DNA from: Marsupella aquatica
Lineage: Eukaryota > Plantae > Marchantiophyta
Length of the DNA stretch: 64,000 nucleotides
Assembly: GCA_973895155.1 (NCBI GenBank)
Contig: OZ316893.1
Span: forward strand, 15,840,645-15,904,644
Direction of reading: 5' to 3'
A model generated the notes under the pieces. The model did no database searches. It worked only from the letters and a program-made list of their open reading frames with translations, and had not been told where the DNA came from. Shown piece after piece: positions 5,626 through 46,143 of this stretch. The translations under genes and the position numbers were made by a program. Positions within the stretch are counted from its first letter, which is position 1. The number at the start of each line of letters is the position of its first letter.

Positions 5626-7089
5626 AGTGGTGGACCTTGCCACCCAGCGCCCTCACCAATCCCAGCACTCATGCCTAAGTGCCCCTGGTGCCCGAACGCC
5701 TCCATGGAATACCTCGAGCAAGCACCCTAGTACCTCTTGCACCACCAGCGGCCCCATACAAAGCCGCCTTGCTCACCCACATGACCGCTACTCAACGGCC
5801 TCCTTGTCTGCACAAGCAACCAAGCACCTTGGTAAGTAACCCTCCAGGATCTAGAACTTGCCAAGTCTAGCATCCTAACTCAAGCTCAATAGACGTTGGT
5901 AAATAGGTCAGTGATAGGTCCTCCCGATGCCATAAGCCGTAACCAAAACCCACGCCCACTGTCTGTCCAAAACAACTCCTTCCTTGGGCACGGCCCGGGT
6001 TCCCCCTCGTACCTATCCATCACCAACTGACCTCCCTTACCTCAGGACATGCTCATGGCCCAAATAGCGTAGCTTGTACTAAAGCTTGTCCCAAACTTGT
6101 CCCAACACGCCGGGACCAACTCCCGGTTCGCTCCACTGATGGTCTAGGGGCCAGACACTCTTGGGACTCAACCTCCACACCTACTTGGCCTTGCCTCCCC
6201 AGCGCAAGCTCCCTTGGGAGACTGAACGCGACTTGGCTGCCGTTCGGCAGGATTTGGCAAGCGGGCCAGTTAACACCCGCAAACCCCGAGAATCCAAGGT
6301 ACCCCCAGACCCAGCTGAGCTCAGGAGAGCGTAGCCCTTCTTGAGAGCTTTCCAACGCATCCAAGAAGTCTTCCAACGGACTTCCCGTTAGGAAGATATC
6401 GCCATTTCCGTTTGGCGGTTTCCCTTAGTGTCGCGACCGCCACGGCGCACGACTTCGGCTCGCCTTGGCCCCCAAGGAGACACCACTCCCCTCATGTATG
6501 CTTCTGGAGACCTGCCACCCCCGGACCAGCTTTGGTACCTAAACATTTGACCCCCAACCCAGATCCTATTGCGCATAATGGGCACGCCACCAACTGACAA
6601 CGCCCATAACTTTCTCGTTAGGCATCCGCAAGCGGAGTGCCTTAGCCCGTTATGATCGGGCCGACCCAGTGCTCATGCCTAGGCCCTCAGGTCTCATCGC
6701 CGCTCAGGGCCCCCGACCGGCCCAACCCGGATCAGGCCGTAACTTGCGCCCCAAGCGTCCGTTGCCCCTGGTGTCAACTCCATTGGCCTTGGGCCCAAGA
6801 GGAGCTCACACTCAAGCCCTTAGAACTCAAAGTCCCTCCGGAGGTCCGGACGGCCATCCTTGAGTCTGGCCCATTTCCCCTTGACCCGACTAGCTATCAG
6901 CTAGTCCAAGTCCTTAGTGTGTATCCCCAGCTTGGCTCCTTGCCTCGCTAGTGCCACGTCTCATTGCCCACAAGTCTCCCCATGCTAAGTCCTCCCCGGA
7001 TGGCCTATCCGGGCCTGGAACATAAGGGAGCTCGGCGTCGGAGTCAGCAACGCCGGAGCTAAGTGTTAAGGTAGTCAAGTTCCACGACT
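5626..7089 (-). mobile_element. Solo LTR (1464 bp) of the chromovirus family at 12970-46143
   Basis: It is the reverse complement of the LTRs at 12970 and 44651. Termini are AGT...ACT and the 5-bp TSD CCCGT lies at 5621-5625 and 7090-7094. Confidence 0.95.
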
Positions 7090-7261
7090 CCCGTACATCT
7101 CCTGAAGTCGACCATGGAGAGGCGGTGGCACTTGCATGGGTTTGGGCAGGTGAACAGAAAACCTCTCCATAAACGGTGGCGATGGAACATCACGCTGCCA
7201 AGGTATGTTCCTCTCCCCGGGACTGATACCTTCATCCGGCGGAAGATGGAGGCGATTGACA

Positions 7262-7503
7262 AAGTCTGTGGTTTCTATCTCAACAGATTCAGTCCTTGTC
7301 TAGAAAGAAGTAAAGTGAGTCAAAATGGGAACAACGGGATCTCCTTCAATAACCCTATCTGCGCCAATCTCCATTCCCATATCTCTAACAATACCAGAAT
7401 TATTAAGATCCGTATGCGGCCCTACATTGGAACTTTGAAAATGGCCTTCCATGGAATCGAGAAGGGAAAAATGAGAGCACTGGACTTTGAAAGAAACAAC
7501 CAT
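7262..7503 (-). pseudogene. Decayed unknown ORF of the MULE region; continues at 1651 to about 1468 once the insertion is removed
   Basis: ORF 7300-7503 reads through a TAG and across the insertion junction in frame, with further TGA/TAG stops. No domain was recognised. Confidence 0.35.
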
Positions 7504-12082: not shown

Positions 12083-12969
12083 ACCCCAAGTTCTTCACGA
12101 TCGTGATGAGTATCTCATTCATACCGTACTTCTTCTAGAGAATTCTTGCACGAATAACCTCTGAAACGGAACCTAAATACAGCAGACAAGGAAGGTGGAG
12201 AGAGTATCCTCTCTAAACTATCCTCTCGCTACATTGATATCTATCTAGGACATTCTCTTGAAAGCCACTTGTCAACTCCGGATTAGTTGTTGGAATACCG
12301 TTGGCATATCTTCAACGTTACGCAAACCTAAAGTTACCGTTGAATATGACCGTTAAATAAATAATGCGATCAATTTCATCTATATTCTTTAGGTGAAATC
12401 TCATATTGGTCAATAGTAATGCCTGGCGCTACCAAAAACTCTCAATATTGAAACCCTAATTTTTCCATAAGTTAAACAAATTTGACTCTGAAGTATAAAA
12501 TAAAAAACAAAATGAATACATATTTTTGAATATTTGTCCTTAAATGAATGTCATGATTGCCGATTCAGATTAGCGCTCGGCGCTAATATAAAATCTCCCC
12601 ATTTTTGGCAATATTTTAGAATATTTGTAAAATAGCTACAAACATTTAGGATTTATTCTGAAATCCTAGATATTAGCGCTTGGCGCTAAATATAAAATAT
12701 ACCAGTTTTAGGCCACAATTTAGGGTGTAGGTTTTAGTAGCGCCTGGCGCTAAACATATATTTCACCATTTTAAGTCCAAATTGGAGTGTGTATGTTTTA
12801 GTAGCGCCAGGCGCTACTCAATTATGGTGATTTTATAAACATGATTATGTTGTTTGGAAAAGGACATCTTAGGCTCATTAGTGTAAATGTCATTGACATA
12901 ACAACAATAACATTTATTGTGTCAGATGTGCTTTCACCCGGAAGTGATTCTGTCGTATTCTAACGGCTC

Positions 12970-14443
12970 AGTTGCGGAACTCGACTACCTTAACACTTAG
13001 CTCCAGCGTCGCTGACTCCGACGCCGAGTTCCCTTATGGTCCAGGCCCGGATAGGCCATCCGGGGAGGACTTAGCATGGGGAGACTTGTGGGCAATGAGA
13101 CGTGGCACTGGCGAGGCAAGGGGCCAAGCTGGGGACACACACTAAGGACTTGGACTAGCCTATGGCTGGTCGGGTCAAGGGGAAATGGGCCAGGCTCAAG
13201 GATGGTCGTCCGCACCATCGGATGAACTTTGAGTTATGAGGGCTTGGGAGTGAGCTCCTCTTGGGCCCAAGGCCAATGGAGTTGACGCCATTGGCAACGG
13301 ACGCTTGGGGCGCAAGTTGTGGCTCAATCCGGGTTGGGCCGGTCGGGGGCCCCAAGCGGCGATCAGACCTGAGGGCCTAGGCATGAGCACTGGGTTGGCC
13401 CAGTCACAACGGGCTAAGGCACTCCGCTTGCGGATGCCTATCAAGAAAGTTATGGGCGTTGCCAGTTGGTGGCGCGCCCATTATGCGCGATGGGATCCGG
13501 GTTGGGGGCCAAATGTTTAGGGACCAAAGCTGGTCCGGGGGTGGCAGGTCTCCAGAAGCATATATGAGGGGAGTGGTGTCTCCCTGGGGGCTAAGGGCGA
13601 GCCGAAGTCGTGAGCCGCGGCCGTCGCGATACTAAGGGAAACCGCCAAACGGAAATGGTGGTATCTTCCCAACGGGAAGTCCGTTGGAGGACTTCTTGGG
13701 TTCGTTGGAAATCTCTTGAGAAGGGCTACGCCCTCCTGAGCTGAGATGGGTCCGGGGGTGCCATGGGTTTTTGTGGTTTGCGGGTGTTAGCTCGCCCGCT
13801 TGCCAAATCCTGTCGAACAGTAGCCAAGCCGCGTTCAGTCTCCCAAGGGAGCTTTCATTGGGGAGACAAGGCCAAGTAGGTATAGAGGCTGAGTCCCAAG
13901 GGTGCTCGGTCCCTAGACCATCAGTGGGGCGAACCGGGAGCGGTTGCTAGAGTTGGGGCCATTCTGGTCCCGACGTGTTGGGACAAGCTTTAGGACAAGC
14001 TACACTAATTGGGCCATGAGCATGTCCTGAGGTCAGGGCGGTCAGTTGGTGATGGATAGGTACGAGGGAGAACCCGAGCCGCGCCCAAGAAAGGAGTTGT
14101 CCTGGACGGACAGTGGGCGTGGGCTCTGGTTTCGGCTTATGGCATTGGGAGGACCTATCGCTGACCTATTTACCAATTTCTGTTGAGCTTGAGTTAGGAT
14201 GCTAGACTTGGCGAGTTCTAGATCCGAAGGGGTTACATACCGAGGTGCTTGGTTGCTTGTGCAGACAGTGAGGACCGTTGAGTAGCGGTCGTGTAGGTGA
14301 GCAAGTGCGGCTTCATATGGGAGGGGCCGCAGGTGGTGCTAGAGGCACTTGGATGCTTGCTCGAGGTATTCCGTGGAGGCGTTCGGGCACTTAGGCATGA
14401 GTGCTCGGATTGGTGAGGGTGCTGGGTGGCAAGGTCCACCACT
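12970..14443 (+). repeat. 5' LTR (1474 bp), AGT...ACT
   Basis: Direct repeat of 44651-46143 with scattered transitions and small indels. Confidence 0.95.
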
Positions 14444-14445
14444 TG

Positions 14446-14457
14446 TGGTATCAGAGC
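14446..14457 (+). promoter_or_regulatory. Primer binding site, tRNA-iMet
   Basis: TGGTATCAGAGC begins 2 nt after the LTR end. Confidence 0.9.
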
Positions 14458-14545
14458 GATTGCTGGCATAGACACCGGACCGGGGCCGTGCTAAGTTGGA
14501 ATCCAAAAATCTTAACGGATTTTTGTAGGGACTTAGTGCTTCAAC

Positions 14546-17260
14546 ATGCCCGGCAAGTCGACTGCGGGCAGATTCGGTCGCTGGGAACATGGCAAAAAAC
14601 ACTCGTGCAAAGAGTGGCAAGCAGGCTCCCCCACCAAGGGGAGAGCCCAAGTTCATGATGAACAAAAGGAGGATGGGTCGACTTCCCTAGACAAATGTTA
14701 CAAGCAAGATGAAGAAGACGCAACAGCCGAACCATCGACCGCTGCGACAAACAAGTCAAGTGCAGAGCGTCGTCAACTTAAAGGGAAGGAGGCAGCTGAT
14801 CCTTCAGAGGATGGGTCGGATGACTACGACTCCAACGCAACCGCAAGCGACGACAACGCTGAAGCTGAGACAGAGGAAGAGGGTCAGGACCCGGAAGAGG
14901 AGCTGATCCCAGCCTTGAGAGGGTTGAACGCGGAACCAGAGGATGATGCCGAGCCGGACATCATCGTGGATAATTTGACCAAGCAGAACCAGGATGACGC
15001 GGGTGATACCTCAGTCCCGGGAGGTCATGGTGCTCGCAAGACACGGGGGGTGTCACCAAAATCCACAAGAGAACCTAAGGACAAGCGGCCCGCAAAGGAA
15101 AGACGGTTGGAGGACCGTCCTCACACAACCCGCAAGGGCCCAGCCGTTGACGATGGTCTGGGTCCGTTGACTCAAGACCAGCGACTCATTTATGAGCAGT
15201 TGGAACACAACAAGGGGGCCCAGATTAAGTACTTACTTAGTCTGGGTAGTCAGAGTGTGACGCGCCCCGAGGGGGGAATGGTAGTTGGACGGAGTATGTT
15301 CCAAGTGAACCAGCTACCGACTCCTCCAACTTACAACGGGGCCTATGAACAAAGTGGATAAAATTTTGTGAGTTGGCTCTCCATGATGGAGATTCATCTC
15401 CAAGCGTGCGTTGAGCGCTCCACTTGGGCCACCGCAGCCGCTCCTTACCTGAAGGACTATGCCCTGACTTGGTACAAGTCATGGAAGAAGTTGAGGGAAG
15501 ACTCCTCCTTGCTGTTAACTTGGGAAAACCTGGTTGAGGGTCTCCGTGCTCATGCCACCACTAAGTACCCGGAGCGGCACGCTCAGAAATGTGTAACGGA
15601 GATGAGCTTCAGGGGTGATATCCAAAAGTTCATCACTTATTACCAAAATCAGTTGACGTATATCCCGGCGGGATAAGAGACCCTGCATACACAGCTTCAC
15701 AACTTTATCGTGAAGCTCCCGCCGTTGCTCAGGGAAAAGTTATAGGAAAAGCGTCATGAGTTCAAAATGCTTTCTGACGCCTTCGACAAGGCCACTACGT
15801 TGGTGAATAACCAACCGGACTTGGCGAAGGTGGGTGGCAAGGGATCCGAGGGGGAAGCTGGGAAAGCAAAAGGTCCCGGGAATAAGCGTAAGCAACCTGA
15901 CGGGGCGGGGGCCGGTGGTTTGGATCCCCAGCCCCGGAATGGAGAAGCTAAGTGGAACCGGAAGGCCGACAACTTCAATAAAGGAACCTCATCGGCACAA
16001 AAAGCAAAGAAGCAGGCGACCATGGAGCAGAGGCGGGCGGAAGGTTTGTGCTTCACATGTGGTGCCATGTGCCATCAAAGTAAGGATTGTTCCACGAAAG
16101 GTGGCAAGCCAAACGGAGATGGTGGAGGGCAGAAGAGCATTAAGGTAAGTATCGCTCTAACCAAACCCTTAGTAGCTGACAAGGTCCCCATAGGGGATGT
16201 CCCTGACGGGGAGAGGGCGTTGTTGCGAGAGAAGATACCTAAAGTTAAGACAATGGATCCTGAAAAACTGATTTTTGTGAATGTCAGTTCTAACGGTAAT
16301 CTGGGGGTTGCTTTGGTGGATACAAGCGCGACCACCTACTTCATAAGGAGGCAGGCGGCAACACATCTTGGGGTGGACGTGCAAGAGTTGCTACAACCAT
16401 TAGTGTGCAAGTTTGCCAACGACATGAAAGGGATAGTGTCGAGAGTGGTCCATAGACTTCGAGTAGAGGTCATAGGCGAGCAACAAAATTTTGTTAGTCA
16501 GGAGATGTTCTACGTTCTAGACGGTCTAGCCGTAGACTTCATTTTGTCGGTAGGTTATCTCAGAAAGCACAATGTTACCTTGAAACCGGGGGGTGAAGTG
16601 CTCCATTTTCCCAATAAGGGCGGTGAGCCCATCATTGTACACAAAATTACCGAAAATAAAGAAAGATTTCTTAAAGTAAGTAAAGTGTCATGGATGTCTC
16701 CGTGTGTATCGGCGAAGCAATGGTGGAAAGACTTCAAGGGTGGACATGATTGTTTCTTCTTTCATCTCCACCCAACTAAGGAGGCTGATTCGCAGCCAAA
16801 GGTCAAGTCAGCCAAGGTCGGGCCTGACTGAGGTCGAATTCCTGAAATTTTAGAGGAATTCAACGACGTGCTCTTGCAGAAGCTACTTAAGGTTTACCCC
16901 TACGGAGAGAAGTGGATCACCAAGTTGAGTTGGAGCCAGGTTCGGGTCCACAGGCTAAAGCTCCTTATTGTTTGAACCTGAACGAGCGAATGATGTTGAA
17001 GAACGCCTTGGAAGAGTTGATCGACCAAGGGTTCATTCGCCCTAGTAAGAGTCCTTACGGGGCGCGCCGTGCTATTTGTGTCCAAAAAGGATGGTACTTT
17101 GAGATTGTGCGCAGATTACCGGGCCCTCAATAAGCAGACGGTAAAGAACAAGTACCCGTTACCTTAGACATATGGATGACCTCTTTGATTGCCTCTCCGG
17201 GGCTAAGAAGTTTTCAAAGGTGGACTTGCGGTCTGGGTATTACCAGATCCGCCTGGCTAA
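14546..17260 (+). pseudogene. Gypsy gag, zinc knuckle, aspartic protease and RT N-terminus
   Basis: Motifs: YLKDYALTWY..LTWENL (gag), CFTCGAMCHQSKDC, ALVDTSATTYFI (protease), [10 protein letters not shown] and [12 protein letters not shown]. There are several stops and frameshifts. Confidence 0.9.
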
Positions 17261-19543
17261 CACTAGAAGAAACCGGCCCATTCTGAGACCCTGCCTTAAG
17301 TGACTCTAATGAGACCTTGCAAAATTTGTGACTCCTAGGTTTTGGGTGTCATTATAGTTACAAGTTGTGGACTGAGTTTTGGAGAATTCTTGGGAAGTCA
17401 TTTCTATAACTATTGGGGAAGTTGCAACTATAACTAAGTTCAGCCAACAAGAATGAAGTTGTATAAGTGACTCCCTCTACAATAGAGCGTTATATATGTA
17501 AGAGAGCCTTAGGGTTTAACACCACAATCTAACCACATTTGACCCCGCCCAACACATACCATTTAGGATATATCCTAATTTTCTTAGTTGTCAATGGGAC
17601 TAAAGGAGATGCCCTCGGGATATTGTGTGAGTACGCAACTCTACAAGGTAAGTAAAGGTCCTTGGTCAATGTCAATGCTAACAGATCTCAAATATATACT
17701 CTACATTAGAGTAGACTGAATTACAACATATGTATGCCACAAGTTTACAAGTGTTACAACATAACAAAATAATCCCAACTAGCTAGGGTCCCACAATGGC
17801 ATGCATGTAATATTAATTGGACTCATTTTTGTGTCTAAATGGGTACATTTGAAGTTATCTCCTTGGTTATCTCTAACTCTCACATATGCAAGGGCAGGTT
17901 ATTTTTACTTATTGCACGCCATGCCATGCATACATACCGTCATGTACCCCCTCCACACATTGTTCCATCTAGATTCCTTTAATTAAAGGTTCAAAATCAC
18001 CAAGAACTGGGAATGCAGCTGGAACCTCCATGTACTTGGCATGTCTACATGTTATAATTAGACATATCTGATAATGGCACCCCACACACTATGCTCATGG
18101 AATGAGCATAAGAACTTGTGACAGTCCTTACCTTAATTAATCAAGCAAGGATCTGACGGTCGTAAACTTAATCAAAGGATGATCTGACGGTTGAAAACAA
18201 ATATGGGCACATTAAACCAGGTTTAGGGTTTAATGGATTCCTTCACGCCAACTCCCATTGCGCCTTGGATTCCTTTGGATTTGCGGACGAGGAGCTGATC
18301 GCGCATTCTTTGCGAGGGAAAAAAGGGGGCAGTTTGTCGATCACTAAGGCTGAAGCTGCATTGACAAATTGCAATCCCGACTGCAATGGGAGTAGTAGGA
18401 GGCAAGAAGAGCGAGTTTAGGGTGTTGCATAGACAAAACAGAATGTGAGTCGTAGGCAACATTCAGCCATTGTATGTGTTTAGCATTGATCATAGGCACT
18501 GTGGGAGGCACTGCAGGAGGCGTTTGCCACTGCGCAAGGCACTGTAGGAGGCACTTGTTCCTTCAAGCTGGGAGAGTCAATTTGACGTTCAGCTGCAACC
18601 TGGGATCGAGAACCAGGAGCTTCTCATTGCGGTTTGGTGTGCATTTGGACTGTTCTTGCAAAGTGGGACTCCAGGCCTGGAGACATTGCATTGATCGCCT
18701 TTGGATGTACATTGGAGTCCGACTAGGAGGCTTTCAAGTGGAGCTGGGTTGGAAGTGAGTTGAAGATTGAGTTGCCATCACATTGCAATAGCGGGGGATT
18801 GTTGCTCAGCTTCACATACTGCTACGGATTACTACGCAGCTTCAGTTTGAGCGGCTTGGTGCTGCATCAGCCCATGTAAGGCTGCAATCCCCTATCTTTG
18901 CTATGTGACCTCGCGGCTGCAAGTTTGGTTGACTTCTTTGTGCTGTGAAGCTGTTTTTGACTCAGGTTCCAGCCAAGTTTCACCAGCGCAAATTTTTCTA
19001 AACATGAGTGTGGGCTACAACTGGTGAGGTGGAAGGGATAAGAAAATGCGCTACCGTCATTGACAACATCTCAACCTTTTACAGTGAGCGCTATTGACAT
19101 TCGGCCGGCTGTAAGTGTATTTCAAGCTTGACTTTAACTTGCCATCTGCATGAACCGGCTTGCAATAGATGTTGTAGCTTTTGCTTAGCTGCATTCACCT
19201 CCCAAGATGCCCCGTGACATCCAGGTTTGCACAATGAGATAATAAGGCTGAAATGATAAGGTAGTGATTGCCAATGGATAAAAAGCTTTATGAGAGTTGC
19301 TTCAACGTTCAGCTGCAAACTAGGATTAGGAACCAGGAACTTGTCGCGGCAGTCCAGCTTGTTTACTTGGAGCCGGAGCTGGAGTCAAGTTTCACATGTT
19401 TCTTGTTTAGTGACAGAGTACTTCTGAGAAATGTGACAGCCCCTGTGAGAGCTTTCGGCACCAGTGAGGTAAAGGGTGTTCTTACTCATGCAATAGTCAC
19501 TTTGACCTTCTGAGTTTCAGCAAATTGAGTTTCAAGTGCGGGC

Positions 19544-19633
19544 ACTGAGAGTTGACCTGTTTGAGCTGGGGTCACTGAGAGTTGAGCTCTTTGAGCTACG
19601 GTTACAGAGAGTTGAGCTGTTTGAGATGCGGTC
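19544..19633. repeat. 30-bp tandem repeat x3
   Basis: Units resemble ACTGAGAGTTGAGCTGTTTGAGCTGCGGTC. Confidence 0.8.
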
Positions 19634-20930
19634 TCATAAGTGAACTAGATCCTCCCCCGTGTAAACGTCTAGCATAGTCACATGTCCAAGCTTTGCTTTT
19701 GACTCTGAATATATTCACTGTCAACCATTGAAGGAGCTACGTGCATGAATTGTCTACTTATTGGGTTGTTTAGGGATTCAATATACAAAAATGACAACTT
19801 GAGTAAGGCAGTCTACGGAGGCGCGAAAGAGTCGCGAGGAGTCGAGTTCAGCTACGGCAGTATTCACTTCAGTTGTCTCAATGTGGTTGGCGTGAGCTGC
19901 AGGTGAGCTTAGCTGTGTGCACATTTCATGTAAGTCAGGTGGTCGGTGTTTTAGGCATTGCGGAACTTGATTGACCACCCCATGGCTAAGGTTTAAGGTG
20001 CGGACTACAACAAATATGTGTTGTTGCTGAAAGTGTTGGTGGTGAGCGACAACTGGTATTGTTTCAGCTAAAGGGAGCACATTGGAGCTTGTGTATCCAT
20101 GACCTGCGACCGATTGCGGTTGCCTGCTGTTACAATTGCCGAATCAATCACGCACCCAATCTTGCGGGCAGACACAACTTTGCGGGAGTGTTGAAGGTTT
20201 AGGGTGAGCAACAGCGGAGAGCTCATTGCTTGGTGGCAGGGTTGAAGGTGGATGATCGGGCTGCAAGGCCAACCGGGGACTTGTTTTGCATTGAGCGATT
20301 GCTGCGGATTGCTACGCAGCTTCAGTTAGGGCGGCTTGGTGCTACATCGGCACAGGTAAGGCTGCAATCCCCTATCGACGCGGACTCACCTCGTGACTGC
20401 AAGTATAGTTGTCTAGGTGATGTATGCATTGCGTGTTTAGGGTCTAGGTGACATCGCTGCTAAGCAAAATTTGTGAGCTGCCTAGGTCCATTGCCGAATG
20501 TTGCTTCCTTTAAATTACCTGGTGCCTGCTGTTACAATCGCCTGCTCAATCATGCACCCAATCGCCTGGAGCTCATTTGCCTGGAGCTTCATCCGTCAGA
20601 TTCAAACTGTTATTGCTGCTCTGCCCTTTTGCCATGGGTTGCCGGCCTACCGGATGCTATCAACAGATTAAGAACAAGTCATATCCTAAGTCCCGGTGTT
20701 GCAGTGATGTCCCCGACCCTAAGATGCTTTCCAAACTCATCTTTCTTGTTTCCTGTTGCTGCTGATGTATGTATGTTCTCCCCTATTTTTGCTTACAGAT
20801 TGGTCTCTCCACACTTCTTGCTTGACATGATTGTTTTGCTCCTCCCTGTATCAGAACATGCCTTGTGCCCGGCGGTGGGGTGGGGGGGTGAACAGACGAC
20901 CTTAAGGTTCACTACATTTCTAGGAACTGT

Positions 20931-21090
20931 GCATCTTTCAGCTGATTTTAGCCGCAAGTTCCCTTGCTTTCCCCTGTTTTTGCTAAGATCCCTCCCACTA
21001 ATCACATGCATCTTTCAGCTGATTTTAGCCGCAAGTTCCCTTGCTTTCCCCTGCTTTTGCTAAGATCCCTCCCCACTAATGACATGCATC
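20931..21090. repeat. 77-bp tandem duplication
   Basis: GCATCTTTCAGCTGATTTTAGCCGCAAGTTCCCTTGC... starts at 20931 and 21008. Confidence 0.85.
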
Positions 21091-24840: not shown

Positions 24841-24851
24841 CATGCGCAGGC

Positions 24852-26997: not shown

Positions 26998-27430
26998 GGA
27001 GTAGTAGCATCAGTTTGGACACAAGTTTTTTTGTATAAATCAGATCATTGAAATAAATGTGATCTTTGAACTAATGTACCTTGTTATGGTTGGTGGCAGT
27101 TGGGCTTATTTTACTGTTGGCGGATTGTTGTTTCCTGCTGCCTGGGGTTGTCACTGTAAACGTACATGCAGAGGCGGTACATTTGAGGACAGCGGAGGAG
27201 GTGGTGACACCCTCCAACATTTAGAAATTTTGTGTCATTCACTTGACAATAGGTACACTACTTGCGAACCTGTTTTTTTCTTTTGGGGTGGTTTAGGGTT
27301 TGTGAGAATTTAGTACACGTTATGTTAACTCTTTTGGCAGATACAGTCAGGGATATATGGAACACAAATACCACCATTAGGCATCCTTGTTCACTGCTGT
27401 CCATGACTGCAGAGCTCCCAGCCTGTTACA

Positions 27431-31160: not shown

Positions 31161-31317
31161 GTAATGTGAATTGTTTGCATAGACATTAGTGAGGGGAAGG
31201 ATGTGTAATAAAGTAATTCTGAAGCAACACAGATGTATGGATGGATGCCTGGTGATTGTGGTTGCATTGTGTTATACGGGGTGACCATAGATGACATGTT
31301 TTTGTGGTCCAGTAGGA

Positions 31318-34300: not shown

Positions 34301-37300
34301 GTGATTTCCTGTATTACGTTATAGGCAAATTGTTCATCAATTTGGGTTGTCGGTCGTTTATATATGTTACCTGTTTGCATGTATGTGATTGACATTTCCT
34401 CGTTTTCTTCGCTCAGTGGGTCGTTTTGATTTATCGCTGTCACGTTAAGTGTGATCGCTGGTTCCAGCGCGGGTGTACCCAAGTTTGCTGCTGGAGTTTT
34501 ACGTTGGCGAGGCTGGGAGTCCTTGATCCCTGGTGGTCTGCCTCGCTTTGCTCTGGGGGCTGTTACATTGGCCGGTGTCGAGGAGGTTTGTACTCGCGAT
34601 GGCGCATTAGCTGCTAAGTTGTGGGATCTTGTGACATTTGCAGCGTCGTTAAATGAGTCTGGAATCTTTTCGAGCATTTCATGTAGGTGGAGAAGTCTTC
34701 TGACTTCTTCGTCTGCCTGCTTGGTTCTGGGGTCATTTCTGTTTTGGTCTGCTTTCCAATTTATGGGCATTTTCGTTGTGTCCTTGGATTGTGTTGATGC
34801 TGTATTCGTGAGCTGTGGGAATTGATCTTCATAAAAATGGCAGTCCTGATGTCTTGCCTTGAACAGGTCTGCCGTTGTCGGTTCAAGGTATCTAATGATC
34901 GAAGTAGAGTCAAACCCAACATAGATACCTGCATTCCGTTGGGGTCCGAGTTTTGTTCTCTTTGGTCCTAAGATAGGCACCATTACCTGGCATCCGAAAA
35001 TGCGTAGGTGGGACAGGTCCGGTGGTATGCCGAACGCCAGGTGGTATGGTGTCTTAGAGTTATATGCTGACGGTCTATATTGGATTAGTGCAGCTGCGTG
35101 AAGGATGGCATGTCCCCATGCTGATGTGGGTAAGTTTGACTTCATTAACAGTGGTCTTGCCACCATTTGAAGTCTCTTAATAACCGACTCAGCTATACCG
35201 TTCTGAAAATGAACGTGGGGAACTGGATATTGAGTATCGATGCCCGCTGCCCAGCAAAAGTCGTCGAATGTTCTTGATGTGAACTCGCCAGCTCCATCTA
35301 CTCTTAATCTTCTTGTAGGATACTCTGGGAACTGTGCTCTTAATTTAAGAATATGTGCTAAGATCCGCGCAAATGCCAAGTTGCGGGTAGATAGCAATGA
35401 AATCTGCAGCCATTTAGTTGATGAGTCGATGATTACCAGGAAATATTTGAAAGGGCCGCTCGGGGGGTCTATAGGTCCGCAGATATCTGCATTGATCTGC
35501 TCTAGGAACTGTGGTATTGAAAATATTGTTTTTGGTATTGATGGTCGTATGGTCATTTTTCCTTGTGAGCACGCTATGCAGGCTGTTTTTACCTTTGGCT
35601 TGACTGTCTTGGGGATTCCTTTGGAGTCCCTTATAATCCTGTTGTACATAGTGGTACCCGGGTGGCCCAGTCGACAGTGCCAGATGTATGTCATATCCTC
35701 TGATTCTTGGTGTATATGGAATGTTTGGATACTGGTTGCGTATAGGCCTGGGGGGATCAATGCAAATGTTTCTTTAATGGATGGCTTACCCTGTATGTCT
35801 TGTATGATCTGTAATGTCTCTGTTTTGCCCTGAGTATTCGTGCGCAGTTGGAGGTTATTGGATCTGATATCCTGGAAGCTGATGAGGTTTCGGGTTGCTT
35901 TCGGGGCATAAATTGCTGACTTCACGGTGATTTTAGTTCCTCCTGGTAGTATAAATGTGGCTCGTCCTTTGCCTTCTTCTATATGATTAAGTCCTGCTAT
36001 GGTGGTGATAGCGCGGGATGATGGGGTGATGGCCTCGAAATACTTGCTGTGTTTTAAGATAGTATGTGAGGTTCCGCTGTCGATGATGCCCGTATCGGGG
36101 TCGTCTAATGTCGGGTATTTCCAGTCAGTAAGAGAGGTATGTACTTCTATCTGTTCTTGTGTTTCTTCTCTCTGAGAGGCAATCAATTCTTCTTCTATCT
36201 CCATATAATGTCCTTGGGGGTTTTGTCTGGACTTATTTCTGTCGTTTATGTATCTGTGGGCCTCTTGTTCTGTGGCTGCACATGCGTTTCTAATGTGGCC
36301 AATTTTGCCACATCGGTAACACATTTTCTGGGAATTGTTTGCAGTGTCGTATTGGTTGCTTCGTCCTCTTCCTCTATTATTCATGGTGCCTTTGCGCCAC
36401 GTGTTATTGGATCCGGAGGGTCGGTTATAAGGTTTGCCTTGTCCTCTGAATTGATTTCTCCCGCCCCTGAATTGGTTTCTTCCGCCTCTGAATTGAGTTC
36501 GTCCGCCCCGGTAATTTCCTCGTTGTTTGTCTTCATAATTGGTGTAGTGGGTTTCAGGTCGATGTGGTGGGGGGTCTGATCCTGCTGGGCGCTTTCTGGC
36601 GTTTTGCAAGGCCACGATCTGTTGCTTCTCTTCCACAAGTAAGTGAGCAATCAGATCTGAGTACTTAGTGAAACGCATGTTCCTATATTGTGTACCTAAT
36701 GTGATATTAGATTCAGGGAATGTCGATAGTGTCTTATCGATTCTATCTATGTCATTTATTGGATGTCCACACATTTCTAATTGAGATGTAATTCTGCACA
36801 GTGCGCTATTGTAATTGGCAATTGTGGTGTGGTCCATGACGCGCAGGTTATGCCAATCCCTTCTTGCCTCTGGGAGCCATATCTCCCTCATATGATCAAA
36901 TCGGGCTTTGAGGAGATCCCATAGTTTTCTTGGATTAATTTCGTTCATATACTCATTCTTTAGTTGAGGGGTTAGATGTTGCCTGAGTAGAAACGCTGCC
37001 TTAGCCTTTTGTTTGAGCGTGACATCGATGTCGGTATCTAAGGTGTCTTCAAGGTCTTGTGATGTAAAGTAAGTTTCGACATCTGTGATCCACGTCAAAT
37101 AGTTGGATCCGTCGACTTTAAGTGCTGGCCATAATAATTTTTCGACTGTATTCATTATTCGGGATGTCAGTTGATTTAAGAACTTTGGTGAAGATTGAAT
37201 CGAGTGAAGTATCTCGATTGTACAATTGACCGGTTGGAAGCTTGTATATGGAGCTGAGGGAGCTTTCAATCATGCCAATAAAGTATTAGTCCTTTGGACT

Positions 37301-40300
37301 CTCGATATGCTGGTCCCGAATTGATGCTCTATGTGAAATTTCGTGTTTTGTAAAAAAAATTCAACTCTGAGGCAAAAGAATGGAGACCAAGAAAAAAAAC
37401 GGTTATGGCAGTTTCTAAAAAAAAATGCCACTTTACGAGCATTCTCCTCGTGTAAAACTCGATTGCATCTGCTTGAAAAAAAATGATTTTAGAGACTGGC
37501 TCGTGCTGATAACGTGTTGTGATAGACAACTAAAGGAACACTCAAAGATACTCCAACAAGATAGATCCATTACTATTGATGAGGGGATATATATATCCCC
37601 TTGGTTACATGGTAGGCAAATGCCCTTATACTGGTCCTATGGTTAGGAGTTCTCATACTATGGTTAAGGGTTCTCGCCCTATGGTTAAGGGGTAAACTAG
37701 GGTTTACAACAGTTTAGAGGTTTCATATGTTCAGTACTACACATATGTACCTTGCTTAGTTCCTGACATTGTAGTTGGTGATGTGATGCAGCGTCCTGCC
37801 AGTTCTGTTTTGCCTTCGAAGCCTGTGCATGCACCATACCAGCAGGGGGGGCTGACCTCTGATCAAGGTTGGCGAGGTGGTAGTAGTGGTAGATCCCAGG
37901 CTGGTGCCCAATACTATGGCAGGGGGCAAGCTCTAGGTTATGCCCGTGGTAGAGGCAGAGCAGGTCCAAACCCACAATCTCGTGGGTATGGACGTCCACC
38001 TCAACCGTGGGGATGTGAGTATATATCTATATGCCAGTTCTTTGTGAAGGCATGGCACTCCTGAATTTCAGACTGCATATCAATTTTTGACATTGTTTGG
38101 GATGTATTGGATTCAGACAACATGAAATTCTGTCCACCTGCCATTGCATGCAGATTCTGCCCAACCTGATTGGGCAAATGCTAGTAATGATCAGTTCCAA
38201 TGTCCACAAGGACAGACATGGGTTGAACCAGGTTGGGAGGATGGTGGTGGGTCGTGGAATGAACAAGGTTGGGAAGGTGGTGAAGGTAATTGGCAGGGAT
38301 ATCAAAATTCAGTACCTACAAACGCTGGAAGAGGAGCAGGTAATGTCTGATCTTGTCAGCAATGGAAGAACTCATTATATGTGGAGTCCATTCACGTGGG
38401 GGGGACTCTGCACATGTATAATGATAGAAAATGTATGTGTGCAGGTTGGACAGTCGAACCATCAACTCAAGTATTCACTAATGCCCCTATGCAGATGCAG
38501 CACGGAAGGGGGACAGGTATGTCGGTGAATGTTCAGTTGTTTTCCTACAGTTTGTACTTAGTTTTCAGTACATATGTTTGCACACACATACCTAGAAAGT
38601 GACATCATCCGGCCCCTGTACTAGGCTGGACAGGTGGTCCAGGGTCGCAACAATTTCAGAGTGCAGTCCCTGCACAGGCATCTACAGGCAGAGCTACAGG
38701 TATGTATGTTTGAAGAATTTTTCTTGAAGTGAAGCATTGAATGTTGCCGTCATCCATTCTGCTATATGTAGTTCTCAAGCATGAATGGCATTGTATTTTC
38801 CCAGGTGGCTTCAGAACCCCAGGTAGGGTGAATGAAGGGGTGGCCAATACAACGCCCAGTACTACCGAGAGCAGTGCACGAGGGGAGGTGACAAAGAAAG
38901 GGAACGTAAAGTTGAATGAGAGACAATGGGTGGATGCTGAGTGTCCTCGCAAGAACTGATGGCATGCTGATTTGAAAGTTGAAGTATTGCGTTGGTTAGA
39001 TGTGAGTGTTATTAATTTTAAAAAACAGCATCCAAAAGATTGGAAGACTGTATGTGAAAATGTTGCTGCCAAATGGAATTATGTGGGCAGTGATGATGGC
39101 GTGGACATAGGTTGCCTAGAGAGTACAGCAGGTAAAATTATCAAGCAAGAGAGGTGGAGAATGCATAAGGCTTGGAAGGAAGGTGGGGAGAAGCCAGATA
39201 TGCCTCCACCAGCCAGTTGTGATGATAAAGTGTGGGCAAGGTTAGTAGCTTATTTTGTAACAGATGCTTCAAAAAAGAAGAGTTCACAGATGACCGAGGC
39301 CAGGTTGAGTGTTCAGAACCCTAATCTGACAGGAAGGACCGGCACTGCACCGACAGCTAAACGTTTGGTAAGAATGAATGGCCTAGCTATGTAATTTATG
39401 CTACACTATGTACTATTTTTTAGTGTAAACCCATACATGTAAACTTTGTTTTTTAGTGTACGTTCCCTGAATATTGATCGATAACTTGTGTTTGCCATGC
39501 ATGTGCAGAAAGCCCAATTGGGGCAAAGCCCTTCAAAAGAAGAGTTGAGGGCTGAAATTGTGAACACCCGGGCTCAAGAGGGTGCATCTGAATCCTCCAA
39601 GCATGTAAGTTATATGAGTTCTGATTGGTAATTGAATGACCTGCGTTGAATTTCAGGTGTACACTGTATATAACATTGATTGTGCATATATTGCCCAACA
39701 TTTCATATGGAGTGATTGAACCTATACCCCTGTGTCATGTAGGGAGGTGGATCTTCACTTACAGAGATAAGTGGTCGTTTGAAGGCTGTCGAAACATGTC
39801 TTCCAGAGATCAATGAACGTTTGAATTCATTGACTGACTTGTTCCATGTGAACTTCAAGACATTAATGGAAGCTGTTGTGTCGGTGAGAGATAAAATTGA
39901 TTCCAATTCTGCAGGAGTTCCACCATCACCACTTGAGGTGGCAAAGTCGATGCACTCTTCTGGCATGCCAACGACATGTAGGCTTGAAGGTAAGGCCTTT
40001 ACAACTGTGTGGGATATGATTATTAAATGTATAGTTTGAATTGACATTGTTTGTTGAATGTGTTATTTTCAGTAACATATATTGTGGTTGTTGTGTCCAT
40101 AGAGAATAAGACAGGTGCTACAGAGAAGAAGTATGAGAACCTGGCAAATACTCGCTGTAATTTAGAGGCAACAAAGTTGCAGTCTGTACAAGCAACTTGT
40201 TTGACAGAGGGCAGTCAACCATGTTTGGATGAGGATGACATTGGCAAGGGAGTGGATGATATCAATGTTGGGGCAAATGAGGATATCAGCAAGCATGACA

Positions 40301-40899
40301 ATGATACCATTGAGCCAGATTCATGCTATGTAGATCTTGACTCCATTGCAGAGATAAATGATTTGCAGAATGTATCATTCTCAATGACAGGTGTGCCTCT
40401 TGTTGAGATAAATCCAACCAAAGAGTTAGTTGGTATGACACTCCCAGGTGATGAACCTGCTACTGTGACAGTCCTAACAGAGGAACCTACTGAGCCTAGC
40501 TTCACTACTGTGAAGAGAGGAAGCATGCGCACACGAAGCAAGTCTGCTGGTGGGAGCAGAGCCACGTCAAAGGTTTCATACAAACCTCCAAGAACAGTGC
40601 TGGCAGAAAGATCTAAGGTGGAAGTGGGGAAAGCACCTAATGCTGAGGGACAAAGTGGCTTGTTAGCTGTTGATGAGAGTGGAACACGAGTAGGATTTGC
40701 CAGAGTGCAGGTTGGTTCCACAACGTTCCATGGCAAGAGGATTCCCCCAGGTTATTCAGTAGTGTTAGTCACATTACTAGTGAAACCTAAAGCTGTCCTT
40801 CCCATTCCAAACACAAATGATGATCCTCCTCAAAAGACACTTGGAGATGCTGCAGGTTCTTTGGTATTATGGCCAAGCAAGTTCATAGAGGATCCATAA
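31318..40899 (+). CDS. CACTA TnpA/Tnp1-like multi-exon gene (exon boundaries approximate); Copia lies in an intron
   Basis: A middle exon reads VLRWLDVS..W..V..ERWRMHKAW..PP..CDDKVWARLVAYF..SKKKSSQMTEAR. The C-terminus reads HGKRIPPGYSVVLV..LPIPN..TLGDAAGSLVLWP. Several GT-AG introns are visible. Confidence 0.7.
32542..37269 (-). CDS. Copia gag-pol polyprotein (gag, CCHC, PR, INT, RT, RNase H); likely ATG near 37155
   Basis: Single uninterrupted ORF: ALKVDGSNYLTW, CYRCGKIGHIRNAC, IIDSGTSHTIL, WHCRLGHPG, DICGPI, LRVDGAGEF, NGIAES, RARLVAKGY, LYVDD, GYTDAGY and IYEDNKAC. Confidence 0.97.
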   Translation of the reverse strand: MKAPSAPYTSFQPVNCTIEILHSIQSSPKFLNQLTSRIMNTVEKLLWPALKVDGSNYLTWITDVETYFTSQDLEDTLDTDIDVTLKQKAKAAFLLRQHLTPQLKNEYMNEINPRKLWDLLKARFDHMREIWLPEARRDWHNLRVMDHTTIANYNSALCRITSQLEMCGHPINDIDRIDKTLSTFPESNITLGTQYRNMRFTKYSDLIAHLLVEEKQQIVALQNARKRPAGSDPPPHRPETHYTNYEDKQRGNYRGGRTQFRGGRNQFRGGRNQFRGQGKPYNRPSGSNNTWRKGTMNNRGRGRSNQYDTANNSQKMCYRCGKIGHIRNACAATEQEAHRYINDRNKSRQNPQGHYMEIEEELIASQREETQEQIEVHTSLTDWKYPTLDDPDTGIIDSGTSHTILKHSKYFEAITPSSRAITTIAGLNHIEEGKGRATFILPGGTKITVKSAIYAPKATRNLISFQDIRSNNLQLRTNTQGKTETLQIIQDIQGKPSIKETFALIPPGLYATSIQTFHIHQESEDMTYIWHCRLGHPGTTMYNRIIRDSKGIPKTVKPKVKTACIACSQGKMTIRPSIPKTIFSIPQFLEQINADICGPIDPPSGPFKYFLVIIDSSTKWLQISLLSTRNLAFARILAHILKLRAQFPEYPTRRLRVDGAGEFTSRTFDDFCWAAGIDTQYPVPHVHFQNGIAESVIKRLQMVARPLLMKSNLPTSAWGHAILHAAALIQYRPSAYNSKTPYHLAFGIPPDLSHLRIFGCQVMVPILGPKRTKLGPQRNAGIYVGFDSTSIIRYLEPTTADLFKARHQDCHFYEDQFPQLTNTASTQSKDTTKMPINWKADQNRNDPRTKQADEEVRRLLHLHEMLEKIPDSFNDAANVTRSHNLAANAPSRVQTSSTPANVTAPRAKRGRPPGIKDSQPRQRKTPAANLGTPALEPAITLNVTAINQNDPLSEENEEMSITYMQTGNIYKRPTTQIDEQFAYNVIQEITNDIPDPLTINEAKKQPDWPKWQAAIHTEMDALIKRQVFGPFKMALPGTHYTDSRFTFLKKRNEKGIVVRYRARLVAKGYTQIPGRDYDLTYSPVMDATTYRYLTAHSVHHKLVNNLMDVVTAYLYGTLDTEIYMTAPPELIERVKQHIQGETSQNLNTEIKKGISQIIPDGDTKALLMQSGNTQAMHTRGKKLTTKLTVQVLRSINGLKQSGRIWYQKFQTEMLALGFTNSGLAPCIFIKKHMDEVLILALYVDDVNLFGTKQMMKDTIHTLKGVFEMKDLGRPNHCLGLQIEHLETGIFLYQSTYTQKILHQFNMQKSYPVSTPMELRSLDPIKDMFRKRQEDESILGSEKPYLSAVGALMYLANQTRPDISFAVSLLARHSAQPTIRHWNGIKRIMRYLQGTIDLGLFFPKNSPDTLTGYTDAGYLSDPQDSKSQTGYVFLQGTTAISWRSSKQTMTTTSSNHSEIIALYEACREAVWLRSIINHIRSSTGKPQITEPTTIYEDNKACIDQITNGILKTERTKHIDPKYFFTQEQQGKSINVAWIKSQDNRADMFTKPLPAGLHRAHLEGIGMSRLSTIKPTS
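37500..37514 (-). promoter_or_regulatory. PBS complementary to the anticodon arm of tRNA-Ile (half-tRNA priming)
   Basis: The minus strand reads CGTTATCAGCACGAG directly after the 5' LTR, with no TGG/CCA complement. Confidence 0.75.
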
Positions 40900-41444
40900 C
40901 AATGTCATGCCATTATTTGTTTGTAGTGTGAGTCATGTTATGTAGATTTTAGATGTCAAGAAGCAGTACAAGAATCATGTCCTCTTGGAGATTCATAGTA
41001 TCATGCATGTGCTTTCAGTTATCTCATCCTACAGTCATCAATTATGAGTTCCTGTTTTGTCTAAATTACATTGATCACATTGTAAACTATTCCATTGGAA
41101 TTCAAATGATCTTCATTTTTTAGCAAGATTGTGATTGTGTTTAATTCTTATGAATGTTTTATGTAGGATCTGCTTATATGATGCTTTGTTTCATGTGGAT
41201 GTCATTCATGCTATGTTCATTTCTTGTATTCAATGTGTTATATTTCTAAAGTTAGAACATCAGGTTTCTATGTATTGTAATGTCGAGTGCTCTCTCTTCT
41301 TATGAACTGTCCCTCTGTGTTCATTAGTCATGGTTATAACTTGCATGTGAACCTTATTAGTTATAAACATGAGTATATAGAGTCCCAAATGGTTCTGTTG
41401 TGTGACGCGGGCCAGGGTCTCCATTGGTCTCTCCTGTGACACTA

Positions 41445-41720
41445 AATAGTCACACGCTAGTCGTTGTTGAATGCGGGTAAGTCATGTATGTGACTTACGA
41501 TGTGACTCGCTGAAGTCATATTGCAGTCACGTCGAAACAAGGCTAGACTCCACAATAAAGTCACAGATCAGTCACAAATGGGTATCAAGCAAGTTGCAAA
41601 GCCCAGTATCAATAGTGACTTCCATTTTTTGGTCTCAACTTTTGCAACTCCAAGGGTCACAGCGTGGGTCAAGTCACGTTGAGTCACAATGAAGTCACAT
41701 GAGCCAAAATGAGTCATATA
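41445..41720. repeat. CACTA subterminal short repeats (AGTCAC/GTGACT), putative TnpA sites
   Basis: More than ten AGTCA(C/T) or GTGACT copies occur in both orientations, with a few more at 17298-17475. Confidence 0.7.
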
Positions 41721-41757
41721 TTGCGGTCTCAGTTCACCTCAGATTCTTCTAGTGTAA

Positions 41758-44212
41758 GGGAGACGAGTATAAGACCGCGATGTGCACAAGGTTCGGATCC
41801 TATGAGTTTTTGGTTATGTCGTTCGGGTTGTGTAATGCAACCGCAACGTTCATGAAGATGATGAATACCATCTTTCATGACTTGTTGGACCAAGGAGTGG
41901 TCGTCTTTATTGACGACATCCTAATCTACTCGAAAACATTGGAGGAACATGAGCAATTGCTCAGAGAAGTGTTCTCTTGCCTTCGTAAGGCTCATCTCTT
42001 TGCTAAACCTAGCAAGTGCGAGTTTGCGATGAATGAGATTCAGTTCCTCGGCCATACCTTTACCCCGGAAGGGAGTACGCCTAGTTAGGACAAGCTTAAG
42101 GAGATCAAAGAATGGGAGCGCCCGTCCAATGTAAGGCAAGTTAGAGCCTTCTTAGGATTTATGGGGTTCTATCGGAGATACATGAAAGACTATGCGAGGA
42201 TCGTGAGGCCCCTAAATGCGCTAACATTGAAAAACAAAGTGTTTGTGTGGACACAGGATTGCAAGTTAGCATTCCTAGAACTTAAGCGGTTAATGATAAC
42301 ACCGCCGGTTCTAAAGTTACCTGAGATGGGGAAGTCGTTCGAGATTTGGACAGATGCAAGTGATTATGCCATCAGCGCCTATCTTCACCAAGATGGGCGT
42401 CCTGTGGCCTTCGAGTCATGTAAGTTGGAAAATCACTGGATCACGCCAGAAAAGGAAATGTATGCTGTGATCTATGCGTTGAAGAAGTGGGAGATTTACC
42501 TTAAGAACAGTCCCAAAGTGGTAATCCACACAAATAGCTCGCCGGCCGGGTACTTCAGTTCTAAGCCAAGGCTGAACCCCAAGGAAATGCGCTGGCAGAT
42601 GTTCTTGGTGGATTTTGATTTTGAAGTCCACCACATTCTAGGGAAGACAAACACGGCAGCGGACGCGTTATTGCGTAAGGACCAACATCGTGTCAATGGG
42701 ATCACGATGCTCAAATCCGAGTGGCCAAAGGTTCTGGCCGCGGCGTATGGGGATGACAAGTTAGCTAAGGAATGGCAAAGCAATGGGGGTAGTAGGGGCA
42801 AGGTAAGGCACATATCGTTGGGGTTGGATACGACACATAATGTCCAATTATGGCGATACAAGCAGAGGCGTGTGTACATACCAGAGTCTCTAAGGTTAGA
42901 GGTTCTGCAAAAGTACCACGACTCGCCCTGGGGAGGGCATGGAGGACAAGCCGCTACGTATCGCAGCATGTCGCGAGATGTGTATTGGCCGGACATGAAG
43001 CAATCGGTCCTTCAACACGTACAAAGTTGTTACTCGTGCCAAAAGAACAGAATGGTCTATAGGGCAAAAGGAGGACTGCTACAACCCTTACCAGTAGATG
43101 CGGCTCCATGGGAGTCTATCTCCATGGACTTCATTGTTGGATTACCTGAGTCCCACGGCAGTAACTCCATCTTAACAATCATGGATCATTTTTCCAAGAT
43201 GGCATATTTCTTGCCTACTACGAAGATGGTTTCGGCCCGAGAGGTTGCCGGTCTAGTATTTGACAATGTCTTTCGACAATGGGGATTGCCGTTGCATATC
43301 CTGTTCGATCGCGATACCAAGTTTACGGGCCATTTTTGGAAGGCGTTGTTCCGGTTATCCGGAACAGACCTGACTAGGGGATCAGCGTATCATCATGAGA
43401 CAGATGGCCAAACGGAACGGGTTAATGGTATCGCGGAGGACTACTTGCGTCATTTTGTCACGGCCAATCAGAAGGATTGGGCAAAGCATTTAACAATGGC
43501 CGAGTTTAGGTATAACTTGACCAAGCATTCGGCGACGGAGTTTGCGCCGTTCATGTTGGCCACAGGGAGGACGCCAAGGGCGCCCTCCTGGTTTATAAAT
43601 CCGGAAGCTTGGCGGACAGAAAGCAAGGTTCCTTCTGCGGACAATTTTATTTGAGAGCGGCGCCTAGTTGTGGAAGCGGCTACCAAGGGTATGACCCTTG
43701 CCCAAAGTTGGTACAAGGAGCAAGGGGATAAACATCGACGCCAGGTAAGCTTTGAAATTGGGGAGAGCGTCTGGTTGCAGTTGAGACCAGAGCAATACCA
43801 TGGGAACATAAGTAGGAAGTTGGCTCCCAGATACGCGGGGCCCTATTGCATCATACGATGGGCCCACAAGGATAATCCGGTTTCGGTGGTGTTGGAAACA
43901 CCCAAGGAAATGGGCGTGGGCAAAAGCTACCATGTTAGCCGGCTCAAGAAGTTTGTCAAAGACAATGATCCCAACCGGGATAAGGTCTTGCGTCCGGACG
44001 CCATGCTGGTGGAGGACGCGGAGGAGTTTGAGGTGGAGGCAATTCTAGACCACCGTTACAAACGCAAGTTGGGAAGGCAAATCTTAGAGTATTTGGTGAA
44101 GTGGGCTGGCTACGACCAGGCCGAGAGTACTTGGGAACTGGAGGAAAATTTGGGTAATGCCTCAGAGATCCTTGGAAGCTATCGTAAGCAAAGCGGTCTA
44201 CCGCCGTTGTGA
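41758..44212 (+). pseudogene. Gypsy RT C-terminus, RNase H, integrase and chromodomain
   Basis: Motifs: VFIDDILIYS, TDASDYAI, HDSPWGGHGG..CYSCQ, WESISMDFIVGLP, DRDTKFT, TDGQTERVN and FEVEAILDHR..EYLVKWAGY..STWE..NL. In-frame stops lie at 42086 and 43652. Confidence 0.95.
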
Positions 44213-44650
44213 ACTGGTACAGGCAACTGTAATTACCTTTGTGAGTTGTATCCTAGTTTCACTCCTCTCGGCCTCTTAAGGATAAAGTTGGATTGCGTTG
44301 GTGCTAGAGGTTTTTGGGCGGCCGATTTGCTTTTTGCGAGTGGAAGTTGATGGTGCCCGCCCTACATCTGCGGGCGGGCTAGTTCGAACCAAAGGGGAGC
44401 GCCCCAAGGGGAGGACAATGGGTCCAACAAGTTTGGAGTTAGCTTACCCGTTTGGACTGGCATCTTACTTGGATAAGTGGGATAGGTTGGAATTTCCTAA
44501 GTTTGGAATGCGCATACCAACCTGGTTTGCATCAGCCTTATGGGCAAACCATTTGTTACCTCATAAAATTTTCAAGGCCCAGAGTGGTCTAGGCGTGTTG
44601 GAACATTTACTGAGGTCACGCGGACGTGACCATTTTTAAGGGGGGGTGCA

Positions 44651-46143
44651 AGTCGCGGAACTCGACTACCTTAACACTTAGCTCCAGCATCGCTGACTCC
44701 GACGCCGAGCTCCCTTATGGTCCAGGCCCGGATAGGCCATCCGGGGAGGACTTAGCATGGGGAGACTTGTGGGCAATGAGACGTGGCACTGGCGAGGCAA
44801 GGGGCCAAGCTAGGGACACACACTAAGGACTTGGACTAGCCTATGGCTGGTCAGGTCAAGGGGAAATGGGCCGGGCTCAAGGATGGCCGTCCGGACCGTC
44901 GGATGGACTTTGAGTTATGAGGGCTTGGGAGTGAGCTCCTCTTGGGCCCAAGGCCAATGGAGTTGACGCCATTGGCAGCGGACGCTTGGGGCGCAAGTTG
45001 TGGCCCGATCCGGGTTGGGCCGGTCAGGGGCCCCGAGCGGCGATCAGACCTGAGGGCCTAGGCATGAGCACTGGGTTGGCCCGGTCACAACGGGCTAAGG
45101 CACTCCGCTTGCGGATGCCTATCAAGAAAGTTATGGGCGTTGCCAATTGGTGGCGCGCCCATTATGCGCGATGGGATCCGGGTTGGGGGCCAAATGTTTA
45201 GGGACCAAAGCTGGTCCGGGGGTGGCAGGTCTCCAGAAGCATATATGAGGGGAGTGGTGTCTCCCTGGGGGCTAAGGGTGAGCCGAAGTCGTGAGCCACG
45301 GCGGTCGCGACACTAAGGGAAACCGCCAAACGGAAATGGTGGTATCTTCCCAACGGGAAATCCGTTGGAGGACTTCTTGGTTCATTGGAAATCTCTTGAG
45401 AAGGGCTACGCCCTCCTGAGCTCATATGGGTCCGGGGGTGCCATGGGTTCTCGTGGTTTGCGGTTGTTAGCTCGCCTGCTTGCCAAATCCTGCCGAACAG
45501 CAGCCAAGCCGCGTTCAACCTCCCAAGGGAGCTTGCATTGCGGAGGCAAGGCCAAGTAGGTATGGAGGCTGAGTCCCAAGGGTGCTCGGTCCCTAGACCA
45601 TCAGTGGGGAAAACCGGGAGCGGTTGCTAGAGTTGGGGCCGTTCTGGTCCCGGCGTGTTGGGACAAGCTTGGGACAAGCTTTAGGAAAAGCTACGCTATT
45701 TGGGCCATGAGCATGTCCTGAGGTCAGGGCGGTCAGTTGGTGATGGATAGGTACGAGGGGGAACCCGGGCCGCACCCAAGGAAGGAGTTGTCCTGGACGG
45801 ACAATGGGCGTGGGCTCTGGCTCCGGCTTATGGCATCGGGAGGACCAATCGCTGACATATTTACCAACGTCTGTTGAGCTTGAGTTAGGATGCTAGACTT
45901 GGCGAGTTCTAGATCCGGAGGGGTTACTTACCGAGGTGCTTGGTTGCTTGTGCAGATAGTGAGGACCGTTGAGTAGCGGTCGTGTAGGTGAGCAAGTGCG
46001 GCTTCGTATGGGAGGGGCCGCAGGTGGTGCTAGAGGCACTTGGATGCTTGCTCGAGGTATTCCGTGGAGGCGTTCGGGCACCAAGGGCACTTAGGCGTGA
46101 GTGCTGGGATTGGTGAGGGCGCTGGGTGGCAAGGTCCACCACT
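44651..46143 (+). repeat. 3' LTR (1493 bp), preceded by the PPT AAGGGGGGG
   Basis: Direct repeat of 12970-14443, followed by the TSD GGCTC. Confidence 0.95.

Follow-up and report, generated by a model that had tools for sequence, protein, structure and literature searches.

A chromovirus family of the liverwort Marsupella aquatica has LTRs that start with AGT and end with ACT, and our reading, to which we assign a probability of about 0.6, is that the integrase of this Galadriel-like family cuts and joins its DNA at CT-3' and not at CA-3', with probable help from a His-Glu pair in the active-site loop. Plant LTRs nearly always have TG...CA termini, because integrase processes the DNA at CA-3'. 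The window, i.e., the whole stretch of 64,000 nucleotides from contig OZ316893.1 analyzed here, holds two insertions of the family: a solo LTR and a full Ty3/gypsy chromovirus, hereafter element A.

Two insertions bounded by AGT and ACT

The solo LTR (1464 bp) lies on the minus strand at 5626..7089, reads AGT...ACT in the element orientation, and is flanked by the target site duplication (TSD) CCCGT, of 5 bp, at 5621..5625 on the left and at 7090..7094 on the right. Element A spans 12970-46143 on the plus strand, with a 5' LTR of 1474 bp at 12970..14443 and a 3' LTR of 1493 bp at 44651..46143, both AGT...ACT, and with the 5-bp TSD GGCTC at 12965..12969 and 46144..46148. When the three LTRs were aligned together with their flanks, the homology was limited by AGT and ACT in 3/3 cases. 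The K2P distance was 0.044 between the 5' and 3' LTRs of element A versus about 0.10 between the solo LTR and either of them, indicating that the solo LTR and element A are separate insertions of diverged copies.

To set the boundaries, 121 shifts per TSD length (4, 5, or 6 bp) were evaluated in both insertions. The unshifted position (0,0) with 5 bp was the sole 5- or 6-bp solution common to the two. Two shared 4-bp solutions were also obtained, but these are sub-cases of the 5-bp one, and under them the copies would differ in their terminal bases. With uniform bases, the chance of finding two exact 5-mers at positions fixed by homology is about (1/1024)^2, or about 1e-4 when the 121 shifts are allowed for. 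The internal boundaries are in agreement. On the left side, a 2-nt spacer, TG (14444..14445), separates the ACT of the 5' LTR from the primer binding site (PBS) at 14446..14457, TGGTATCAGAGC, which we take to be of the initiator tRNA-Met type. On the right side, the G-rich polypurine tract (PPT) at 44638..44648, AAGGGGGGG then TG, is followed by the 2-nt spacer CA (44649..44650), the complement of the spacer on the PBS side, and then by the AGT of the 3' LTR; all these features are on the plus strand. Since a 2-nt spacer precedes the PBS, 3'-processing after ACT is required, and the TG spacer is the dinucleotide predicted to be lost in that step. The sequence-only reading had proposed that all three LTRs are AGT...ACT, that the boundaries are set by the two TSDs, the PBS, and the PPT, and that two independent insertions are present; the flank-inclusive alignment, the single shared 5-bp solution, and the agreement of both priming sites bore this out, one insertion being the solo LTR and the other the full element.

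These data also bear on a trivial explanation, namely that the boundaries were miscalled or the termini decayed after insertion, and that the true ends are TG...CA. The solo LTR taken alone does permit a 6-bp TSD; however, element A rejects this length. Moreover, the internal junctions read CA|AGT and ACT|TG, so an outer TG or CA cannot belong to the LTR. The TSDs abut the LTRs directly, and the same six terminal bases are common to three LTRs from two insertions with 10% divergence.

Between its LTRs, element A encodes gag, protease, and the N-terminal part of the reverse transcriptase (RT) at 14537..17260 (plus strand, with stops and frameshifts), and the rest of RT, RNase H, integrase, and a group-I chromodomain at 41756..44212 (plus strand, with two in-frame stops). 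The RT is split by a nested CACTA transposon of about 24.5 kb at 17261..41754 (plus strand), with CACTA...TAGTG ends and the TSD TAA, and both RT sides flanking it meet at residue 401 of the uninterrupted relative P0009. Without this transposon, element A measures about 8.7 kb. The domain order gag-PR-RT-RH-INT between LTRs with a TSD, together with a Pfam Chromo match at the integrase C-terminus (E 6.9e-16), confirmed the chromovirus identity proposed from the sequence alone. In this one copy, gag-pol is interrupted by stops and frameshifts as well as by the CACTA transposon. No env open reading frame was found after pol: the pol stop is only about 425 nt from the PPT, and the list of open reading frames has a single 117-aa stop-to-stop frame there.

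The CACTA transposon carries in turn a copia element on the minus strand at 31841..37711, with TG...CA ends and the TSD GTTTA, which served as an internal control and indicates that the host uses canonical elements too. This copia is very young, with identical 197-bp LTRs and one stop-free frame of 1575 aa. In addition, open reading frames at 24825-26997 (plus strand) of the CACTA transposon gave NSD-like PHD and BRCT matches and are possibly captured fragments of host genes.

Ends in other copies of the family

The LTR sequence was present in five public sequencing runs from three studies and under two organism codes. Contigs from four of these, runs X2-X5 (two studies), with run X1 (share 0.13) left aside, were aligned to the 3' LTR at 80% likeness; one of the runs may be the source of the window. 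Among the 24 of about 2950 loose-end rows listed, the contigs that exit the LTR exactly at 44651 numbered 110 in X3, 110 in X4, and 71 in X5, with no row of this kind listed for X2, and those that exit exactly at 46143 numbered 41 in X2, 139 in X3, 124 in X4, and 101 in X5. Agreement among the letters beyond the LTR edges was only 0.33-0.38, which fits a large number of different insertion sites. Since each run has 41-139 contigs that depart from the LTR at the same bases and enter diverse flanks, these ends appear to be common to the family. The position at which the alignments stop points to exiting contigs that carry the terminal A and T. On these counts, which in the rows listed cover the two LTR edges and not the neighboring positions, one base inside, where TG/CA copies would be clipped, we regard AGT...ACT as the family-wide ends.

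In some runs, the majority flank letters in the rows listed were TG before and CA after the LTR, as would be seen if the boundaries had been miscalled. Taken together, the LTR alignment, the contig exits, and the boundary-shift test largely refuted TG...CA as the true ends, and we consider a miscall or decay very improbable.

The majority letters of the flanks at 44651 and 46143 in X3-X5 formed a rough palindrome about a 5-bp target resembling CAnTG. This is a hint of a weak target-site preference, with an agreement of about 0.34 and a first letter biased by the flank of the window itself; neither TSD of the window (CCCGT, GGCTC) matches the CAnTG-like target. It was also observed that two X3 contigs and one X4 contig joined the LTR end at 46143 to the start at 44651, which corresponds to tandem LTRs or a circle junction and could reveal the ends before processing.

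Relatives, and a sister family with canonical ends

The best named protein matches of the family were from the liverwort Calypogeia fissa (56-79% identity), then came unnamed proteins of the same group, and the next named matches were angiosperm proteins at near 40% identity. Two integrase trees were built, one with FastTree on 187 rows (8/120 proteins and 5/79 loci were dropped for short alignment) and a quick IQ-TREE analysis on 54 rows hand-picked from the 187; proteins P0121-P0229 lay outside both. The family formed a clade with support of 100 and had protein P0008 as its sister (99). Both fell within a clade of 27 rows (96 SH-aLRT) with angiosperm proteins and one metagenome family, and were separate from the proteins of grasses, pine, fungi, and vertebrates. 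The family integrase clusters with Calypogeia proteins inside a Galadriel-like clade, whose angiosperm members we take to be Galadriel. No family relatives were found in viral contigs or prokaryote genomes, and the metagenome scan gave no close relative with DNA context among its best 80 of 557 matches, at 46% identity or less.

The sister metagenome family has canonical ends. With the two outermost letters of the LTR left unspecified in the search pattern, a PPT/LTR junction was recognized in 6/24 of its loci, and each of these 6 LTRs starts with TGT. Similarly, 16/16 Met-PBS junctions found in 79 loci had CA within 0-4 nt, and none of the 79 loci showed an AGT-type junction. The TGT starts and CA junctions, with no AGT-type junction beside them, suggest that AGT...ACT is likely derived from a TG...CA state. 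In the sister family (L001-L016 and related loci), a conserved PPT-like motif and then TGTCAC were also seen directly behind pol, some 40 nt past the integrase match; this looks like a decayed duplicate of the PPT/LTR junction, with the real one several hundred bases further on.

The same junctions offer another route to the new ends. The integrase could still read CA and cut 2 nt farther out, so that the ancestral spacers AG and CT became LTR ends and new spacers arose. In line with such a register shift, the right ends read ...CA-CT in 3/3 LTRs, the spacer before the sister-family LTR is AG in 5/6 of the junctions shown, and CT or CG lies after CA and before the PBS in 5 sister-family loci; with AG before the LTR and CT after CA, some unprocessed sister-family ends would read AGT...ACT. 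However, the left end is AG-TC or AG-TT, not AG-TG, and so has no inner CA on its strand. The family AGTCGC also matches the sister TGTCGC in register, and the shift needs two new 2-nt spacers. We regard it as improbable, and keep a changed cut at CT-3' as the preferred reading.

Element A resembles Galadriel elements in several traits. It has a Met-type PBS, found in 90% of Galadriel in REXdb, a 5-bp TSD (5 or 4 bp in REXdb), and a length of about 8.7 kb, CACTA excluded, within the REXdb range of 4769-12511 (PMC6317226). Its LTRs exceed 1 kb, and the three cage sites of its C-terminal chromodomain are occupied by aromatic residues. REXdb gives a single gag-pol frame for 74% of Galadriel (PMC6317226); the gag-pol of element A carries the interruptions described above. 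Two traits set the family apart: the AGT...ACT ends, versus TG..CA, or TGT..ACA in SM1/SM2-Galahad of Selaginella (PMC3350952), and the His-Glu loop described below, versus Pro-Gln. The Tcn1 clade, which is self-priming and has no tRNA PBS (PMC6317226), was ruled out by the Met-type PBS of element A.

Ends of the AG...CT type are known elsewhere. Drosophila errantiviruses of the gypsy, ZAM, and Idefix subgroups have AGT/AnT and not TG/CA termini (PMC5408687), and those of element A are of this kind. However, element A has a chromodomain and no env, and its TSD is of 5 bp, whereas the errantivirus target is a 4-nt palindrome. As the closest named proteins are from liverwort and angiosperms, this likeness is likely a convergence and not kinship, on trees that hold no errantivirus sequence.

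Among plants, non-canonical ends were reported in 42/50 genomes, mostly in copia elements, and the first T was the sole terminal base that did not vary (10.1101/137141). The first T is also invariant in lotus, where 6203 TG..CT copia copies were found, and the lotus paper cites a TG..CT gypsy element of soybean (PMC9804982). These elements share with the family that non-canonical ends are still transposition-competent and that the right end can be CT-3' (10.1101/137141, PMC9804982). In contrast, their first base is always T, most of them are copia elements whose LTRs are short, and asymmetry prevails among them (10.1101/137141, PMC9804982), whereas the family found here is gypsy, with 1.5-kb LTRs and symmetric AG...CT ends. 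The CoDi copia elements of diatoms, where TG/CA is missing in 3/26 families (PMC2806351), belong to another superfamily and another kingdom. No report of a plant AG...CT element was found in the literature searched by word match, a search of incomplete coverage with subscription papers, Repbase, and figures outside it, and the available text of PMC13524379, PMC8632968, PMC2582038, and PMC12885004 made no mention of such ends. As far as found, this end type is new in land plants.

The integrase loop and end processing

The sequence-only reading had called for a comparison of the end-contacting integrase residues with those of TG..CA sister families. A comparison with proteins outside the family revealed a His-Glu pair in the family in place of Pro-Gln. 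The loop YHHETDGQTE of element A, whose His-Glu codons are at 43394..43399 (plus strand), aligned in the comparison to solved structures with YHPQSSGKVE of PFV and NHPQTDGQSE of Ty3, so that His-Glu falls on PFV Pro214-Gln215 and on Pro-Gln of Ty3; the PFV numbers 212-221 were obtained by counting from the catalytic residues. The loop was compared in 229 proteins, in which 11/20 family proteins cover it and 207 are outsiders, with P0007 and P0008, of intermediate identity, left out from both groups. At the Pro214 position, His was present in 11/11 family proteins, whereas the outsiders had Pro in 202/207 and His in 0/207. At the Gln215 position, Glu was found in 10/11 family proteins, while the outsiders had Gln in 183/207 and Glu in 23/207. 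With a conserved column defined by 75% conservation outside the family, 5/74 such columns were swapped in the family, and two of these were the His and Glu loop positions. The loop of P0008 is Ser-His, and locus L029 has a Pro-Glu loop yet TG...CA ends.

Structural work places this loop at the DNA end. In PFV it wedges between the DNA strands, the scissile dinucleotide runs over Pro214, and the contacts of residues 212-214 with the removed dinucleotide are of the van der Waals type only (PMC3395085). In RSV, the residue corresponding to Gln215 makes a stacking contact with the G that lies opposite the penultimate C, and Ser occupies the Pro214 position with CA ends retained (PMC7955051), indicating that the loss of Pro is not sufficient for a change of ends. 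We infer that the His-Glu change is a sequence correlate of a putative altered end specificity, in one lineage and with the ends known for the family of the window only, and it likely explains insertion at AGT...ACT ends.

The mechanism we favor, in which the family integrase processes at CT-3', would proceed as follows. Priming by tRNA-Met and the PPT would yield blunt-ended cDNA whose ends are symmetric, 5'-CAAGT...ACTTG-3', of which the right end is deduced from the PBS position and the left end from symmetry only. Integrase would remove TG from both 3' ends to leave CT-OH, and would then join these ends at a stagger of 5 bp. The C:G pair at the penultimate position would be retained, and at both ends the terminal base alone would have changed, A becoming T. 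The CT ends would derive from a TG...CA ancestor and would have co-evolved with a loop that both frays and contacts the last bases.

A different reading of the same loop is that specificity was relaxed: reading would be limited to the penultimate C and subterminal bases, the outer A to T change would have drifted and been fixed by descent, and His-Glu would be an unrelated lineage marker. CT-3' is indeed tolerated at one end in the lotus copia and soybean gypsy elements (PMC9804982, 10.1101/137141), RSV keeps CA without the Pro (PMC7955051), and the family also shows swaps at three conserved columns other than the loop pair. Nevertheless, both ends changed and remain complementary, the 50-genome and lotus surveys call the first T invariant (10.1101/137141, PMC9804982), and the absence of His at the Pro214 position from all outside proteins argues against a neutral marker. 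We consider relaxation rather unlikely, and altered recognition at CT-3' remains our reading. A wider version of it is tentative: a liverwort chromovirus lineage, unseen by TG/CA-filtered references, would have been reprogrammed from CA-3' to CT-3' via His-Glu, the loop being a general LTR-end switch that may have changed in parallel in errantiviruses. Errantivirus integrases possibly also are without the Pro-Gln pair.

The family breaks the survey rule of a never-varying first T, and does so at high copy number and with a symmetric end. The way in which errantivirus integrases use non-CA ends was described as unclear (PMC5408687); a candidate determinant, found beside a TG...CA sister family, makes the handling of non-CA ends testable. 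It had also been anticipated that LTR finders filtered for TG..CA would miss the family. This fits with REXdb, which scored TG/CA elements only and has no Marchantia in its main text (PMC6317226), and with LTR_retriever, which takes TG..CA first and then seven non-canonical motifs, all starting with T (10.1101/137141). Motif-filtered LTR catalogues of liverwort genomes likely undercount the lineage of the family, while homology-based annotation could catch it despite its ends.

Other features were observed in the window outside the two insertions. A stop-broken region at 8338-8946 (minus strand) gave a weak N6_N4_Mtase match (E 8.8e-6, just under the cut-off), with a possible link to the liverwort N4-cytosine methyltransferases. 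Runs of long open reading frames at 47220-50488 (minus strand) and 51928-54535 (plus strand), with no informative Pfam match and one weak phage-scaffold hit, are probably another decayed mobile element. Finally, LINE-like endonuclease and RT fragments were present at 59467-61804 (plus strand).
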